Source: an uncultured Rhodanobacteraceae bacterium (GTDB lineage: Bacteria; Pseudomonadota; Gammaproteobacteria; Xanthomonadales; SZUA-5). From it: DNA of 64,000 nt. This document shows positions 5,953 to 57,356 of this stretch, piece by piece. The stretch spans positions 21,541 to 85,540 of the forward strand of contig CALEZI010000117.1 of assembly GCA_937928755.1 (NCBI GenBank), read 5' to 3'. The notes under the pieces were generated by a model. That model did no database searches. It was given only the letters and a program-made list of their open reading frames with translations, and had not been told where the DNA came from. The position numbers and the translations under genes are program-made. The stretch's first letter is position 1, and each line of letters opens with the position of its first letter.

Positions 5953-6015
5953 GTGGGAGCGACCTTGCGTCGCGAGTTTCCACAGCCAAAGCTCGCGACA
6001 CAAGGTCGCTCCCAC
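5953..6015. repeat. REP-type palindrome (GTGGGAGCGACCTTGCGTCGCGA ... TCGCGACACAAGGTCGCTCCCAC)
   Basis: Imperfect inverted repeat directly after the rlmF stop. A near-identical copy lies at 24425-24487 and related copies at 9370-9433, 25284-25335 and 39805-39875. Confidence 0.8.
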
Positions 6016-8180: not shown

Positions 8181-8295
8181 GAAGGATGGAAGGGAAATTG
8201 ATTCAATGGCTTAGAGAATGTTCGTTGAGAGTCATGGTCGCCCCTGTCGGTGCGCTTGTTCGCGCATCAAACTGGTGGCGACCATGCGGTCTGCC

Positions 8296-8420
8296 TTTTT
8301 GTCCGCAAAGGACGCAAAGAGAGCCAAGAACCCAGGTGTTGATGTACTGCTTTCCTTTGCGTCCTTTGCGTCCTTTGCGTCCTTTGCGTCCTTTGCGTCC
8401 TTTGCGTCCTTTGCGGAAAA
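8296..8420. repeat. family-A k-mer-arm hairpin element, with 7 perfect tandem copies of TCCTTTGCG (8353-8415)
   Basis: The left arm TTTTTGTCCGCAAAGGACGCAAAGAGAGCCAAGAA has about 3 degenerate units. The right arm is (TCCTTTGCG)x7 followed by GAAAAA. The loop is about 20 nt. Confidence 0.85.
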
Positions 8421-8577
8421 AGCTTTTCTTTCAGATACTTGCGTATTGTCCGGCGAGAGTGGTCACTCGCACCGCTGAACATCCGTCCATGCGGCAGGTC
8501 AACAGATGTTCAACACGCATGCGGGTAAAATGTCGCCCATCGTTGTACTCACCTTGCCTCTTTCAGGAGTGGTCTCC

Positions 8578-11902: not shown

Positions 11903-11928
11903 CGCGCCGCACATTGCTGCACACTTGG

Positions 11929-11957
11929 ACGGCCGGGGAAACCCGGCCGTTTTTTTA
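11929..11957 (+). terminator. rho-independent terminator of the EF-G paralogue
   Basis: ACGGCCGGG-GAAA-CCCGGCCGT stem-loop followed by TTTTTTT, 27 nt after the stop codon. Confidence 0.8.
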
Positions 11958-13765: not shown

Positions 13766-13822
13766 ATCTCCTGGACTCGCCATTGCGAGATCCCATTCCC
13801 GACCTGGAAATGAACACAGGCC

Positions 13823-13972
13823 GTGAACCGCTCATCCTGAGCAGAGCGTCCGCTTCATCAGGACGCGGCGTCGAAGGACGAGCAAGAGCCTCCAATTCGC
13901 CTCATTCACGGCCTGCCCTTCGACGCCGCATCCCGGTGGAGCCGGGATGCTCTGCTCAGGGCGAACGGTGCC
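13823..13972. repeat. MITE-like nested inverted repeat (GTGAACCGCTCATCCTGAGCA ... TGCTCAGGGCGAACGG)
   Basis: The outer arms pair, and the inner GCGTCGAAGGACGAG pairs with CCTTCGACGCCGC. A second copy lies at 21321-21478. Confidence 0.7.
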
Positions 13973-14022
13973 TTGTGGATTTCAATGGCGGGTATGAAAC
14001 CAACCCGTAGACTCCCTGACCC

Positions 14023-16377: not shown

Positions 16378-16446
16378 GCCGGCGTATTCGCTTCCAACAC
16401 TGTGCTGATCTGCACCTCGAACTGAGCGGCAATCTCGGGGGACTGG

Positions 16447-16582
16447 TTTTTTGTCCGCAAAGGACGCAAAGAACGCAAAGGAGAGCAAAGGCGTCAGGGG
16501 TGCGGCGCATGAACATCGAGCCCCAAAACGCTAACTTTCGCATGGCTTTCTTTGCGTCCTTTGCGTTCTTTGCGAACAAAGA
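16447..16582. repeat. family-A k-mer-arm hairpin element
   Basis: GTCCGCAAAGGACGCAAAGAACGCAAAGGAGAGCAAAGG ... CTTTCTTTGCGTCCTTTGCGTTCTTTGCGAAC, with a loop of about 55 nt. Confidence 0.85.
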
Positions 16583-16608
16583 CTCCTGCCCAATGAACAG
16601 CGAGAAGC

Positions 16609-17802
16609 ATGATGGAGCCTGAAGCCGCCGCCGCCCTGCTGCGCTGGCGACTGGTGCTCGGGGCTGAGGCCGAGCGTGCTGAGCCCTTGCTGGGTTTGAG
16701 CGCGCTGTGCGCACAGTGCGGGCCCGCGGCGGAAGACGTGGTGGCGATGACCGAGGCCGAACTTGAAGCGCTCGATGACACGCTCGACTTTGTCTACGGC
16801 GCCGGTCGCAAGAGTGGGCTGACTGCCTATCTGCCGCGCTGGCTGGAGCGCGTGCGCGGCTTCTTCACCGCCGATGTCGTCGCGTTGGTGCAGAAGGATG
16901 CAATCGAGAAGAAGGGGCTGACGCGCCTGCTGTTCGAGCCGGAGACCCTGCCGTACCTGGAGAAGAATGCCGATCTGGTCGCCACGCTGCTGTCGGCGCG
17001 CGCGCTGGTGCCGGACGAGGCGAAGGAAATCGCGCGGGGTATCGTGCGCGAGGTGGTCGAGCAGTTGCGCAAGAAGCTGGAGACGGCGACGCGTACGGCG
17101 CTGATCGGCGCGGTCAAGCGCCATTCGCGCAGCCCGTTCAAGGTCGCCCGCAATCTCGACTGGAAGCGCACCGTGCAGCGCAATCTGCACACCTACGACC
17201 ACAACAAGCGTCGGTTGGTGCCGGAGTCTTTCCACTTCCTCGCCAACCGGCGCAAGCGCCACGAATGGGAGGTGGCGATCCTGGTCGACCAGTCCGGTTC
17301 GATGGCGGTCAGCGTGGTCTACAGCGCGATCATGGCGGCGATCTTCGCCTCCATCGACGTGCTGAAGACGCGTCTGGCCTACTTCAACCACGACACCGTG
17401 GTCGACATGACACCGCATCTGGTGGATCCGGTCGAAGTGCTGTTCAGCGCGCAACTTGGCGGCGCAGAGAACTACAACCTGGCGCTCGATTACGCCAAGG
17501 AACATTTCCTCGAGCGCCCGGACAAGACCTTGGTGCTGCTGATTACCGATCTCTATCACACGGCCGGCAACAACGAGCGTTTTCTGTTGCAGGTGCAGGA
17601 GATGATCGACTCCAAGGTCAAGTTCATGGTCCTGCTCAAGCTCTCAGACGCCGGCCAGCCCAGTTACGACCATGACCTGGCAAAGAAACTGGTCGCCCTG
17701 GGCGCCCATTGTTTCGGCGCCTCACCCAAACAACTGGTGGAGATCGTCGAACGCATCATGAAGAACCAGCCCTACGATCACCTGGCGCAAAACCCGAAAT
17801 GA
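16609..17802 (+). CDS. VWA (MIDAS) domain protein (YehP-like / CoxE-type)
   Basis: MIDAS-type motif EVAILVDQSGSM in the C-terminal half, followed by a Rossmann-like alternation. The N-terminal helical region is of the kind seen in AAA-partner VWA proteins. Confidence 0.75.
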   Translation: MMEPEAAAALLRWRLVLGAEAERAEPLLGLSALCAQCGPAAEDVVAMTEAELEALDDTLDFVYGAGRKSGLTAYLPRWLERVRGFFTADVVALVQKDAIEKKGLTRLLFEPETLPYLEKNADLVATLLSARALVPDEAKEIARGIVREVVEQLRKKLETATRTALIGAVKRHSRSPFKVARNLDWKRTVQRNLHTYDHNKRRLVPESFHFLANRRKRHEWEVAILVDQSGSMAVSVVYSAIMAAIFASIDVLKTRLAYFNHDTVVDMTPHLVDPVEVLFSAQLGGAENYNLALDYAKEHFLERPDKTLVLLITDLYHTAGNNERFLLQVQEMIDSKVKFMVLLKLSDAGQPSYDHDLAKKLVALGAHCFGASPKQLVEIVERIMKNQPYDHLAQNPK

Positions 17803-17824
17803 ATCCGGCGTCGTTCCGCCGCTT

Positions 17825-18293
17825 TTGTAGGCCGCTGTGCCGCGTAGCGGCTCACCGGCGCAGCGATCAAAGCGCCGGTGAGCGCGATGAAACTGCGCAC
17901 ACGCGGCCTACAAAAGAACTTGCGCGTACACCCGTGAACCACAGCTCTGGTAGACCGCTGTGCCGCGTAGCGGCTCACCGGCGCAGCGACCAAAGCGCCG
18001 GTGAGCGCGATGAAGCTGCGCACACGCGGCCTACAAGAGCACTTGCGCATACACCCGTGAACCACAGCTCTGGTAGACCGCTGTGCCGCGTAGCGGCTCA
18101 CCGGCGCAGCGACCAAAGCGCCGGTGAGCGCGATGAAGCTGCGCACACGCGGCCTACAAGAGCACTTGCGCATACACCCGTGAACCATCGCTCTGGTAGG
18201 CCGCTGTGCCGCGTAGCGGCTCACCGGCGCTTTCCCTGCGGTCGTGACCAAAGCGCCGGTGAGTGCGATGGAGCTGCGCACACGCGGCCTACA
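17825..18293. repeat. tandem array, about 3.8 copies of a 123-bp unit, each unit a nested hairpin
   Basis: Units start at 17825, 17948, 18071 and 18194. Units 2 and 3 differ at only about 2 positions. Each has an inner stem GCTCACCGGCGC/GCGCCGGTGAGC and outer GTAGGCCGC...GCGGCCTAC. Unit 4 carries a small indel. Confidence 0.9.
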
Positions 18294-21320: not shown

Positions 21321-21478
21321 TTGAACCCGCTCATCCTGAGCAAGGCATCCAACGCTCCATCAGGATGCGTCGTCGAAGGACGAGCAGGGCCTCCAGGACG
21401 TCGCACACCGATCGCCCCGCGGCACCCTTCGACGCCGCATCCCGATGAAGCCGGGATGCCCTGCTCAGGGTGAACGGC
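21321..21478. repeat. MITE-like nested inverted repeat, second copy of the 13823-13972 family
   Basis: TTGAACCCGCTCATCCTGAGCAAGGCATCC ... GGGATGCCCTGCTCAGGGTGAACGG, with the same inner GTCGAAGGACGAG/CTTCGACGCCGC pair. Confidence 0.7.
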
Positions 21479-24345: not shown

Positions 24346-24424
24346 TTCCCTGCACTCTCCGTCCGAGCCTTCGGCACATTGTAGCGACAACCTGTCTACC
24401 GGTGTCATTCAATGGTGCGGACCT

Positions 24425-24487
24425 GTGGGAGCGACCTTGCGTCGCGCGCTCTCACTTTCAGCGCTCGCGACACAAGGTCGCTCCCAC
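24425..24487. repeat. REP-type palindrome, near-identical to 5953-6015
   Basis: GTGGGAGCGACCTTGCGTCGCGCG ... GCTCGCGACACAAGGTCGCTCCCAC. Confidence 0.8.
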
Positions 24488-24621
24488 ATGGGCCATTGCG
24501 CGAACAAGCGCCGCAGCAGGGATGACCGGACCACTCAAGGATCTCCAACCGCGACACCCGAGCGCCGTTGGTCGTGTCACCATATCCGCCCGTCCCGATC
24601 GCCTGCCGAAGGAATCACCCG

Positions 24622-25283: not shown

Positions 25284-25335
25284 GTGGGAGCGGGTTTATC
25301 CCGCGAAAGCTGTCGCGGAGTAAATCCGCTCCCAC
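25284..25335. repeat. REP-type palindrome (GTGGGAGCGGGTTTATCCCGCGA variant)
   Basis: Inverted repeat immediately after the dioxygenase stop codon. Confidence 0.75.
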
Positions 25336-25404: not shown

Positions 25405-25484
25405 GTAGGTCACCTTGGCCGCGTGGCGGCCTACGTGATAACGCCGACTGTCACGTAGTCTGCTGCGCAGACAACGTGACCTAC
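25405..25484. repeat. 80-bp nested palindrome (GTAGGTCAC...CTACGTGA..TCACGTAG...GTGACCTAC), copy 1
   Basis: Two nested stems, with the outer arm GTAGGTCAC pairing GTGACCTAC. It sits 28 nt downstream of the iorB-like stop. Confidence 0.8.
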
Positions 25485-28298: not shown

Positions 28299-28424
28299 GG
28301 TCGGCCCTCGCGATGGCGAAGACCGATCGTAGCGCCGCCCGGTGGCGGGCGCACCGGTCGGAGGTCATGTGGGAGTCCCGGTCGCCCCTGTCGATGCGCT
28401 TATTCGCGCAAAGAACACACGGAA

Positions 28425-28504
28425 GTAGGTCACGTTGCCTGCGCAGCAGGCTACGTGACGCTGTCCATTGTCACGTAGCCCGCTGCGCAGGCAACGTGAC
28501 CTAC
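28425..28504. repeat. 80-bp nested palindrome, copy 2 (same family as 25405-25484)
   Basis: GTAGGTCACGTTGCCTGCGCAGCAGGCTACGTGACGCTGTCCATTGTCACGTAGCCCGCTGCGCAGGCAACGTGACCTAC. It sits upstream of the iorA-like start. Confidence 0.8.
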
Positions 28505-28565
28505 AAATAAATACTCTACAATCAAACGTTTAGAGGATGTTCTGTGAAAGGCGGAACAGCCAATA

Positions 28566-28676
28566 GTCCGCAAAGGACTCAAGGGACGCAAAGAAAGCAC
28601 AATCGTGGATGCGTTCAGCCGGAGCGATTCCCGTTCAACACTTCCCTTTGCGTCCTGTGTGTCGTGCGGACAAAAA
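28566..28676. repeat. family-A k-mer-arm hairpin element (degenerate copy)
   Basis: AGTCCGCAAAGGACTCAAGGGACGCAAAGAAAGC ... CCCTTTGCGTCCTGTGTGTCGTGCGGAC. Confidence 0.7.
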
Positions 28677-38945: not shown

Positions 38946-39080
38946 TTCTTGTCCGCCAAGGACGTAAAGAACGCAAAGGAAGTCAAGGGCTTGCTCGGAG
39001 ATGCCGGCCAGTTGGCACTTGCTGACAACCGTTGTCTTTCTGCTCTCCTTTGCGTCCTTTGCGTCCTTTGCGGACCAAAG
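38946..39080. repeat. family-A k-mer-arm hairpin element
   Basis: GTCCGCCAAGGACGTAAAGAACGCAAAGGAAGTCAAGGG ... CTCCTTTGCGTCCTTTGCGTCCTTTGCGGAC, with a loop of about 50 nt. Confidence 0.85.
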
Positions 39081-39774: not shown

Positions 39775-39804
39775 GCGTGAACCCCCGCGTTCACCCGCTT
39801 CACT

Positions 39805-39875
39805 GTGGGAGCGGGTTCACCCCGCGATTTTTGCGTAAACCTGGCCAGAAGCTCGCGGGATGAACCCGCTCCCAC
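39805..39875. repeat. REP-type palindrome (GTGGGAGCGGGTTCACCCCGCGA variant)
   Basis: GTGGGAGCGGGTTCACCCCGCGA ... TCGCGGGATGAACCCGCTCCCAC, between the receptor stop and the piuC start. Confidence 0.75.
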
Positions 39876-39901
39876 AAGAGCAACCACAATCAACAGCCCG
39901 T

Positions 39902-53944: not shown

Positions 53945-54068
53945 TTATCCGCAAAAGACGCAAAAGACGCAAAGGACGCAAAGAAAGCAGGAACGCGAAC
54001 AGTGGCCATGTAACTTTCCCTGCTCCCCTTTGCGTCCTTTGCGTCCTTTGCGTCCTTTGCGGACAAAA
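53945..54068. repeat. family-A k-mer-arm hairpin element (best-preserved copy)
   Basis: ATCCGCAAAAGACGCAAAAGACGCAAAGGACGCAAAGAAAGCAGG ... CCTGCTCCCCTTTGCGTCCTTTGCGTCCTTTGCGTCCTTTGCGGAC, with a loop of about 28 nt. Confidence 0.9.
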
Positions 54069-55718: not shown

Positions 55719-55830
55719 GTGAAACGTTAAATGTCAAACGTCAAACGTCAATTGAAAAGCACGGCGGGCAGCGCTTTTCGTTTCACGTTTCACGTTTCAC
55801 GTTTCACACCTTTCACCTTTCACGTTTCAC
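55719..55830. repeat. k-mer-arm hairpin element, type B (7-mer GTGAAAC/GTCAAAC arms)
   Basis: Left arm GTGAAACGTTAAATGTCAAACGTCAAACGTCAATTGAAAAGC, a 12-nt loop, and right arm GCTTTTC(GTTTCAC)x4 ACCTTTCACCTTTCACGTTTCAC. The right arm overlaps the last codons and the stop of ispG. Confidence 0.8.
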
Positions 55831-57091: not shown

Positions 57092-57095
57092 TTTT

Positions 57096-57292
57096 GAGAA
57101 GCGGGGCAAGGGGCAGGGGGCAAGGGAAATGGCGCAAAGCTTCGTTTGCAGCGTTGTCGCGGACCGGAGGCTCTGAACGGCACGTGCCCCGCGCAAGGTC
57201 TCAGGCTTGGCGCCCGAAATCGCACGCCGCGACGGTGCCCGTGCATGGCGCAACGGCTGGTCCCCTGCCCCCTGCCCCCTGCCCCGCTCTTC
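57096..57292. repeat. k-mer-arm hairpin element, type C (7-mer GGGGCAG/GGGGCAA arms)
   Basis: The 32-nt arm GAGAAGCGGGGCAAGGGGCAGGGGGCAAGGGA (57096-57127) pairs with TCCCCTGCCCCCTGCCCCCTGCCCCGCTCTTC (57261-57292). The arms are 28/32 complementary, with a 133-nt loop. Confidence 0.8.
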
Positions 57293-57356
57293 ACAGCCTC
57301 GACCTCGTCAACTGAAGTTCCACGCGCGCCTTGATGTCTACCGCGCGCATCACCCC

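Follow-up and report, generated by a model that had tools for sequence, protein, structure and literature searches.

Dispersed hairpins with tandem 9-mer arms in a Rhodanobacteraceae genome: a candidate palindromic core of a small non-autonomous mobile element

In this study, five dispersed hairpins, here called family A, were characterized in the window, the whole 64,000-nt stretch of DNA that was analysed. PyrD homologs assign the source to an uncultured bacterium of the Rhodanobacteraceae/Lysobacterales found in bioreactor sludge. On balance, family A is best read as the palindromic core of a small non-autonomous mobile element of the MITE/REPIN/BIME kind. Sequence comparison showed that in one clear-cut case a composite unit was inserted at the junction of two genes, directly after a stop codon; that one composite lineage has recently multiplied in a related population, where its copies number dozens and are nearly identical; and that inserted copies are inherited vertically. 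It also showed that whole 9-mers are added to and lost from the arms, which often differ in length yet stay near-identical in sequence, and that the loop and side modules drift, the loop apparently being inverted at times. An intact element would be about 230-260 bp long and would consist of TGAGAG, a left hairpin module, a T-run, the tandem-9-mer hairpin, an A-run, and a right module ending in GGTGAGAG. Family A would represent one lineage of a pan-bacterial class of extragenic palindromes with tandem 7-9-mer arms.

Architecture and gene context of the family A hairpins

The initial annotation described five hairpins whose arms are made of tandem GACGCAAAG 9-mers. All five were present at the positions given, and both the sequence at these coordinates and TRF bore out the arm structure; no further copy was found in the window. 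The hairpins, listed without strand, are as follows.

8296..8420, A1: left arm of 2 units, right arm of 7 perfect units; upstream Indigoidine_A, downstream an ORF without Pfam support
16447..16582, A2: 3 units per arm; upstream DUF5682, downstream VWA_CoxE
28566..28676, A3: degenerate copy; upstream penicillin amidase, downstream Fer2
38946..39080, A4: GTTTGGTGAG, similar to the composite end motif described below, directly 5' of the T-run; upstream PKHD hydroxylase, downstream MarR
53945..54068, A5: 4 units per arm, in the pyrD-to-murB spacer, with an ortholog in the relative L240; upstream pyrD, downstream murB

Alignment of 16 half-arms revealed a common plan. From left to right, a T-run of about 5 leads into GTCCGCAAAG as the outer unit, GACGCAAAG repeated n times, GA(G/A)AGCA as the inner unit, and the loop; the right arm is the mirror image and ends in an A-run. 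As a sequence pattern, the family is written (GACGCAAAG)n..(CTTTGCGTC)n. The hairpins measure 110-135 bp, and their arms (27-63 nt) are near-perfect inverted repeats, purine/A-rich in the 5' arm and pyrimidine/T-rich in the 3' arm. Of the 19 exact matches to GACGCAAAG in the window, 18 fall within the five loci; a random 9-mer would be expected about 0.5 times in 128 kb. TRF resolved the right arm of A1 into 7.0 perfect units and found 3-4 units in other arms. In folding, all copies except the degenerate A3 beat their shuffles by far (z-scores: A5, -10/-12; A2, -6.1; A4, -4.4; A1, -3.9; A3, -2.3). These results support family A as a genuine dispersed hairpin family. The LRP, FAS and TQR peptides in the open reading frame track, which had been called spurious, are the direct outcome of translating the 9-mer.

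The loops had been described as 20-55 nt long and completely different among copies, the opposite of what is expected of MITEs. The length holds roughly, the measured range being about 25-70 nt, depending on where the degenerate inner units are counted. The five loops of the window are indeed mutually unrelated. This part of the description is limited to the window, because A1-type copies elsewhere keep both loop and flanks: the A1 loop and about 130 nt of flanking sequence are 75-97% conserved in at least 38 other copies, and the A5 loop is homologous to that of its L240 ortholog.

All five copies lie between co-directional genes, as had been stated; this was confirmed by Pfam or by the GC3 of the flanking genes, with no Pfam support for the ORF downstream of A1. 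For a broader survey of position, 117 hairpins of the CGCAAAG unit type were placed with a crude gene caller. The initial annotation had held that a lack of intergenic or orientation bias would speak against the family; the survey found such a bias, with 66 of the 117 hairpins between co-directional genes, 15 between convergent genes and 3 between divergent genes (16 overlapped a called ORF and 17 lay at a contig edge). Among the 84 classifiable hairpins, 13-18 would be expected in divergent spacers, as calculated from the other spacers at the same loci, so that the 3 observed correspond to a 4-6 fold depletion (p from 1e-3 to 4e-6). Copy number is also high, with 5 in the 64 kb window and at least 36 on sampled contig stretches of one assembly. 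The family A type is, like REP/REPIN elements, extragenic, high in copy number, located 3' of genes, and rare between divergent genes.

The composite repeat and the A2 insertion

A1 lies within a longer repeat, whose parts and whose relatives around A2 and A3 are listed below.

8203..8459, + strand: composite repeat containing A1 (257 nt), with at least 39 related copies on metagenome contigs
8203-8231, + strand: end repeat of the A1 composite (29 nt), 3' end TTGAGAG
8232-8295, + strand: left module of the A1 composite, a two-level hairpin CATGGTCGCC..GGTGCGC-TTGTTC-GCGCATC..GGCGACCATG
8422-8459, + strand: right module of the A1 composite, 3' end GGCGAGAG
16381..16612, + strand: lineage-specific insert holding A2 (232 nt), in which the hairpin stands between a left module that has diverged and a right module
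28369..28551, + strand: decayed composite remnants upstream of A3
28369-28409, + strand: truncated left module of the A3 remnant
28425-28504, + strand: REP pair insertion in the A3 remnant
28523-28551, + strand: end repeat TCAAACGTTTAGAGGATGTTCTGTGAAAG of the A3 remnant

A metagenome scan for hairpins of the GTCCGC subtype returned 104, including a few window and relative copies. Clustering by loop and flanks revealed 62 distinct loci, with one cluster of 39 members that includes A1; within this cluster the composite is conserved at 75-97%, loop included. The remaining 61 of the 62 loci have unique loops and flanks, indicating that most copies are old or of some other origin. About 10 of these 61 solo loci, A2 among them, retain a diverged left module, and A3, as judged from its remnants, is a decayed composite interrupted by a REP pair.

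The boundaries of the composite are constant. TGAGAG or TGGGAG invariably comes directly before the left module, and GGTGAGAG is the 3' end of the right one; TGAGAG stands 5' of every left module and also at the 3' end of the element. The composite ends are direct repeats (TGAGAG) and not inverted ones, inverted repeats being present only at the level of the hairpins, and copies can stand head to tail. In A1-type copies the hairpin is extended by pairs between T-run and A-run and is followed by TTTTCTTTC. Left and right modules are no more than 325 nt apart everywhere in about 1 Mb of sampled loci. REP-like pairs stand directly beside the family A composite in several metagenome copies. One contig carries five tandem left modules alone at a spacing of 131 nt (L314:1788-2330), which indicates that the left module also multiplies without the family A hairpin.

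The insert around A2 provides the clearest comparison of an empty with a filled site. In four relatives, whose VWA proteins are 79-91% identical, the DUF5682 and VWA_CoxE genes either overlap by 4 nt or have 2 nt between them. The window instead has, precisely between GTGAGCC and TGGAGCC, a block of 232 nt that includes A2; its right module ends in GCGAGAAG, followed by CATGA, and it supplies VWA_CoxE with a new ATG at 16609. A clear target duplication was not seen at this insert. On the evidence of the four relatives, A2 is an insertion of a unit larger than the hairpin, and is the decisive case for mobility.

The surrounding operon was also found to be interrupted elsewhere. In the four relatives, AAA_5, DUF5682, VWA_CoxE and the HEAT protein gene follow one another closely, neighbours overlapping by 4 nt or being separated by 4 nt at most; in the window, each of the three junctions is interrupted by a different repeat element (13766-14022, 16381-16612 and 17803-18262). 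The first and third show imperfect target duplications of about 12-15 nt around the start codon. The VWA-to-HEAT junction is occupied by a 123-bp tandem repeat (17827-18230; 3.3 copies, 96% identity), each copy of which has an internal hairpin GCTCACCGGCGC..GCGCCGGTGAGC. The window also has a further family of dispersed hairpins, GCT(T/C)CATCAGGA(C/T)GCG(G/T)CGTCGAAGG ... CCTTCGACGCCGCATCCCG(G/A)TG(G/A)AGC, at 13852-13942 and 21354-21451, and one copy of it is the insert at the AAA_5/DUF5682 junction.

Mobilization would presumably occur in trans, by an enzyme encoded outside the window. No transposase, RAYT or integrase is present among the 40 proteins of the window, and about 1 Mb of sampled loci contained no autonomous version. 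An autonomous element bounded by distant arms was considered and rejected: arrays 0.3-4 kb apart flank amidohydrolase, CorA and phage terminase genes, not transposases. No target-site duplication was found at the hairpin boundaries, where the k-mers of 3-8 nt on the two sides agree with each other no better than those of shuffled pairs. Our best guess at the mobilizing enzyme is a single-strand HUH/Y1 transposase of the RAYT or IS200/IS605 TnpA type, because there is no target duplication, the 5' motif equals the element's own 3' end, copies stand head to tail, and the ends are rich in hairpins. Composite orientation did not follow GC skew, and thus lacked the signature of replication coupling that HUH elements show. 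The surviving copies are probably co-transcribed with the upstream gene and may fold into stems of 30-45 bp; such RNAs would play a REP-like role, hindering 3' exonucleases, causing partial attenuation and decoupling adjacent cistrons.

Turnover, distribution and alternative readings

The initial annotation had proposed comparing orthologous intergenic regions for presence or absence and for arm copy number. In seven related genomes, whose PyrD proteins are 85-100% identical, both proved variable. The pyrD-murB spacers of the source genome and L240 hold orthologous family A hairpins with homologous loops (z 9.2), with arms of 4/4 units in the source genome versus 2/3 in L240. L239 and L241 carry a family A hairpin with a different terminus in this spacer, and their loops match better as reverse complements (z 6.3) than in forward alignment (z 2.6), which suggests inversion of the loop between the arms. 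L116 has no element in the spacer, and in the outgroup L242 pyrD and murB overlap. The same spacer of L118 contains an unrelated long hairpin CGTCATTGCGAGGAGCGCAGCGACGAAGCAATCCAGCG...CGCTGGATTGCTTCGCTGCGCTCGCAATGACG (L118:11050-11160), of a sequence type that is recurrent in many bacterial genomes.

Hairpins with arms of other units also occur in the window, at the following positions.

55719-55830: heptamer arms GTGAAAC/GTCAAAC
57095-57293: heptamer arms GGGGCAG/GGGGCAA
62543-62648: heptamer arms GGGAAAA

At the three syntenic spacers of these heptamer hairpins a long hairpin is present in 7/7 genomes, the L242 copy at the first being degenerate, and the unit family differs by genome: GGAAAAA versus GTGAAAC at one spacer; GGGGCAG versus GGGGCAC/T, or versus 16 copies of CATGCCCT, at another; and GTGAAAC versus GTGAATA, or versus a REP pair in L239, at another. 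Such persistence with changing unit family looks like selection for a hairpin or turnover in situ more than like insertion at random, and speaks against the mobile-element reading. In L242 (7510-7929), one arm of a G-rich hairpin has about 16 copies of CATGCCCT/CGTGCCCT and the opposite arm about 3 units, an extreme one-sided expansion. Unequal arms were found in 41 of the 104 GTCCGC-type copies, the modal form being 3+3 units, and contigs from a single strain (100% and 99.9% identical) agreed in unit number. Arm turnover may proceed by replication slippage together with templated correction between the two arms.

A breadth scan with two tandem units, at one genome per species, found at least 111 stretches of the CGCAAAG unit type. 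By genome label, the matches listed cover about 10 phyla, including several classes of Pseudomonadota as well as Chloroflexota, Planctomycetota, Verrucomicrobiota, Bacteroidota, Acidobacteriota, Thermodesulfobacteriota, Chlamydiota, Synergistota and Cyanobacteria; an isolate, Uliginosibacterium sediminicola, is among them. Viral contigs yielded more than 120 stretches with three units. The unit type is not peculiar to the source genome. Most of the listed matches follow the hairpin plan with the purine arm first, the reverse order being rare, and single unpaired arrays of equal polarity were also found. In 45% of arms a C stands directly before the outermost unit, versus 9% for inner units, with T at -5 and -4; the outer terminus TTnAC|CGCAAAG is conserved though absent from the query. 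Unit variants (e.g. CGCAGAG and CACAGAG) are matched between arms in 23 of 41 hairpins with a non-canonical majority unit. Arrays of different unit families adjoin or are nested at L048, L059 and L010, for example (CTCGGGA)n beside a family A left arm and then (CGTGCCCT)n, or (GACGATA)n around a CGCAAAG arm; these mixed arrays appear as modular blocks.

A far-reaching extension, which we regard as doubtful, would make tandem-unit palindromes a single pan-bacterial, phage-borne class of mobile DNA that also serves as a general U-tract-independent signal for 3' ends or attenuation. Taken jointly with this reading, and at the same low probability, the class would share a common polar layout, running from an outer clamp unit through n slippage units and an inner unit to the loop; it would spread without a conventional transposase, for instance through hairpin-primed or replication-coupled copying or an unrecognized HUH enzyme; and the CGCAAAG family with its TTnAC|CGCAAAG terminus would be a single ancient or horizontally moving lineage.

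The main alternative to a mobile element, unlikely overall though with a real chance of being right, is a host-selected RNA element that evolves in place as a bidirectional factor-independent terminator or attenuator and a 3'-end stabilizer. Each unit of the descending arm (GCGUC + CUUU) would be a weak stem-plus-U-tract, the arm an iterated terminator, and slippage the cause of turnover. Several observations suit this view: hairpins lie just 3' of genes and are depleted in divergent spacers; canonical terminator matches in the window are only at chance level; a long hairpin persists in 7/7 genomes at three spacers despite the changing unit family, and the REP pair of L239 substitutes for a tandem-unit hairpin; the purine-rich arm comes first in family A and in 17 of 20 unrelated unit families at the same loci; the tail beyond the A-run is pyrimidine-rich; and folding energy favours the sense strand weakly (Wilcoxon p = 0.014, with no significance in a sign test). 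Transcripts of Xanthomonas also tend to start or stop at such repeats (PMC4692102). Against it, A2 was inserted within an operon, between two genes coupled in translation, and termination at that point would do harm. Moreover, U precedes the stem and A follows it, whereas a terminator has the opposite arrangement, and a canonical U-tract is absent at all copies except after A1. G·U pairs show no significant strand bias (125 versus 104), a result that fits homogenization at the DNA level, and the conservation of arms, termini and side modules across loci requires common descent. Thus, the terminator reading accounts for the constant presence of a hairpin and for arm polarity, but not for the insertion into an operon or the reversed T/A flanks. 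A conventional intrinsic terminator was rejected separately: the consensus scan missed the family A hairpins, whose stem is followed by an A-run in place of a U-tract. The most convincing canonical intrinsic terminator in the window (11927-11952; an 11-bp GC-rich stem and T8) lies directly 3' of the EF-G gene, indicating that the organism uses classical terminators at some genes.

It is improbable that family A acts as a structural element at the DNA level, that is, as a cruciform or a phased protein-binding array in which the 9-mers are binding units for a nucleoid protein, gyrase or a recombination factor, as proposed for BIMEs. Complementarity is kept equally on both strands, and three units per arm are the modal preference; the apparent loop inversion in L239/L241 (z 6.3 versus 2.6) points to recombination between arms. 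Yet there is no known binding protein, the 9-bp period is unlike the helical repeat of DNA, and several unrelated unit families per genome would need several binding factors. Neither the depletion in divergent spacers nor the closeness to stop codons is predicted by this reading.

It is quite improbable that the composite is a multi-copy small-RNA gene, with the left module as the RNA body, the family A hairpin as its terminator, and the solo hairpins as decayed copies. The two-level hairpin of the left module would agree with this, as would the A1-type hairpin extended by T-run/A-run pairs before TTTTCTTTC; however, no promoter-like site and no Rfam match were found, covariation was uninformative because the copies are too alike, and dozens of copies, head-to-tail arrays and an insertion in an operon are more typical of mobile DNA. 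Least of all can family A be credited as a mutational by-product in which slippage seeds at palindromes expand, template switching symmetrizes them, and similar units converge with no transfer: the variable unit numbers and often unequal arms, the expansion of single arms (e.g. 16 units in L242) and the many unrelated unit families in many phyla are compatible with such a process, but copies at different loci have the T-run, the distinctive outer unit and the inner unit in common, and in many cases the side modules as well, and the A2 junction previously had neither spacer nor palindrome.

Significance and comparison with known systems

As the probable core of a mobile element, family A is of interest in several respects. 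Extragenic palindromes shape operon expression and genome plasticity, and few families (REP/RAYT, Correia, BOX, ERIC) are understood. Family A is abundant, spawns spurious ORFs and breaks translationally coupled junctions; since it is absent from Rfam and the searchable literature, annotation pipelines will mishandle it. It offers clean comparative cases, namely an empty versus a filled site and an ortholog pair with changed unit number, and is suited to studying how palindromes are kept up by slippage and inter-arm correction during loop decay. That one core of 7 nt, with its conserved terminus, recurs in different phyla and in phage contigs raises a testable question on the horizontal spread of tiny DNA elements. 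Interest would be greater still if the pan-phylum family proved homologous or the mobilization mechanism new.

Family A had been reported as unrecognized, and the searches agree with this. At the gathering score, Rfam gave no match in the window, in 18 loci from other phyla, or for the hairpin or left module; below threshold only generic miRNA-hairpin noise appeared. A literature search by repeat string did not find the family A sequence, the nearest papers by description being only Rehm 2015, MacGregor 2015, Di Nocera 2013 and Holder 2015. Family A is thus a largely undescribed family of the extragenic-palindrome (MITE/REP/BIME) kind, without an Rfam or searchable published counterpart. An integron attC site was rejected on the basis of the termini (TTnACCGC / GTCCGC), the housekeeping neighbours, the lack of an integrase, and the lack of R''/R' sites (RYYYAAC / GTTRRRY); CRISPR and uptake-signal readings were ruled out by termini, architecture and context.

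Like a bidirectional intrinsic terminator, family A forms a stable 3' stem-loop with an A-rich ascending and a T-rich descending side, but its loop (25-70 nt) and stem (30-45 bp) contrast with a terminator loop of 3-8 nt. The cyanobacterial STRR heptamers and the TAACTGA repeats found in Beggiatoaceae, Cyanobacteria and Bacteroidetes (PMC4679880) are likewise short intergenic tandem units that are spread patchily over phyla and have no known transfer mechanism; arrays of CGCAAAG also occur in Nostoc and Calothrix. The STRR and TAACTGA arrays are for the most part direct repeats that stand singly, in many cases 5' of start codons, whereas family A is a paired polar hairpin downstream of genes.

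PATEs of the IS200/IS605 type have neither inverted ends nor target duplication, insert 3' of a short specific motif, carry subterminal hairpins and are mobilized in trans by a Y1 transposase. The composite has TGAGAG 5' of every left module and at its own 3' end, and its copies can stand head to tail; neither a transposase in the window nor an orientation bias with GC skew was found. As in MITEs, the element is small and non-coding with terminal inverted repeats, and the interior of A1-type copies is conserved. The MITE Chunjie was reported inside an operon that it does not break, and A2 similarly entered an operon in the manner of a MITE, leaving the downstream gene a start codon. Family A differs from MITEs in that no target-site duplication and, in about 1 Mb of sampled loci, no related insertion sequence were found and most interiors are unique: a conserved interior is seen in the A1-type composite (39 copies) and not in the 61 other distinct loci. 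The composite ends are direct (TGAGAG), whereas those of MITEs are inverted.

REP, REPIN and BIME elements share with family A a high copy number of extragenic palindromes 3' of genes in co-directional or convergent spacers, a mosaic arrangement with other repeat modules, and the absence of target duplication. A REP is an imperfect 20-40 bp palindrome with an unpaired GTAG or CGTC tag, and roles in mRNA stabilization and attenuation have been proposed (PMC3733652). Family A, in contrast, is 110-135 bp long, has tandem 9-mer arms and showed no RAYT link among the 40 proteins of the window; its outer ends are TTTTT-GTCCGC without GTAG, and CGTC occurs only inside paired right-arm units. Two classical REP-like families, GTGGGAGCG..CGCTCCCAC and GTAGGTCACG..CGTGACCTAC, stand in the window as inverted pairs separate from family A (5953-6015, 24424-24488, 25284-25335 and 39804-39876; also 25405-25484 and 28425-28504). 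In L239, a REP pair occupies a spacer that carries a tandem-unit hairpin in sister genomes.

The closest counterpart in architecture is found in Xanthomonas, where hairpins with tandem-repeat arms are a class already reported as inverted heptamer pairs (PMC4692102). Each genome has 70-75 inverted pairs of GGGAATC heptamer arrays in convergent orientation (Rehm et al. 2015, PMC4692102); the arrays lie on average 28 nt from the upstream ORF, are rare between divergent genes, and have no resolved function, and transcripts tend to begin or end at the repeats (PMC4692102). Family A fits the definition of such inverted tandem-repeat pairs, with a different unit and length, and the three heptamer-armed hairpins of the window are likewise of this kind. 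Both family A and the GGGAATC pairs occur in the same bacterial order, have convergent tandem units with the purine-rich arm first, lie near the upstream stop, are about 90% intergenic and rare in divergent spacers, and vary in unit number among species around a preferred number (PMC4692102). The family A unit is a 9-mer without a G-tract, so a G-quadruplex reading does not apply to it. Family A also has features undescribed for the heptamers, namely distinct outer and inner units, T/A-run clamps, side modules, and an insertion event.
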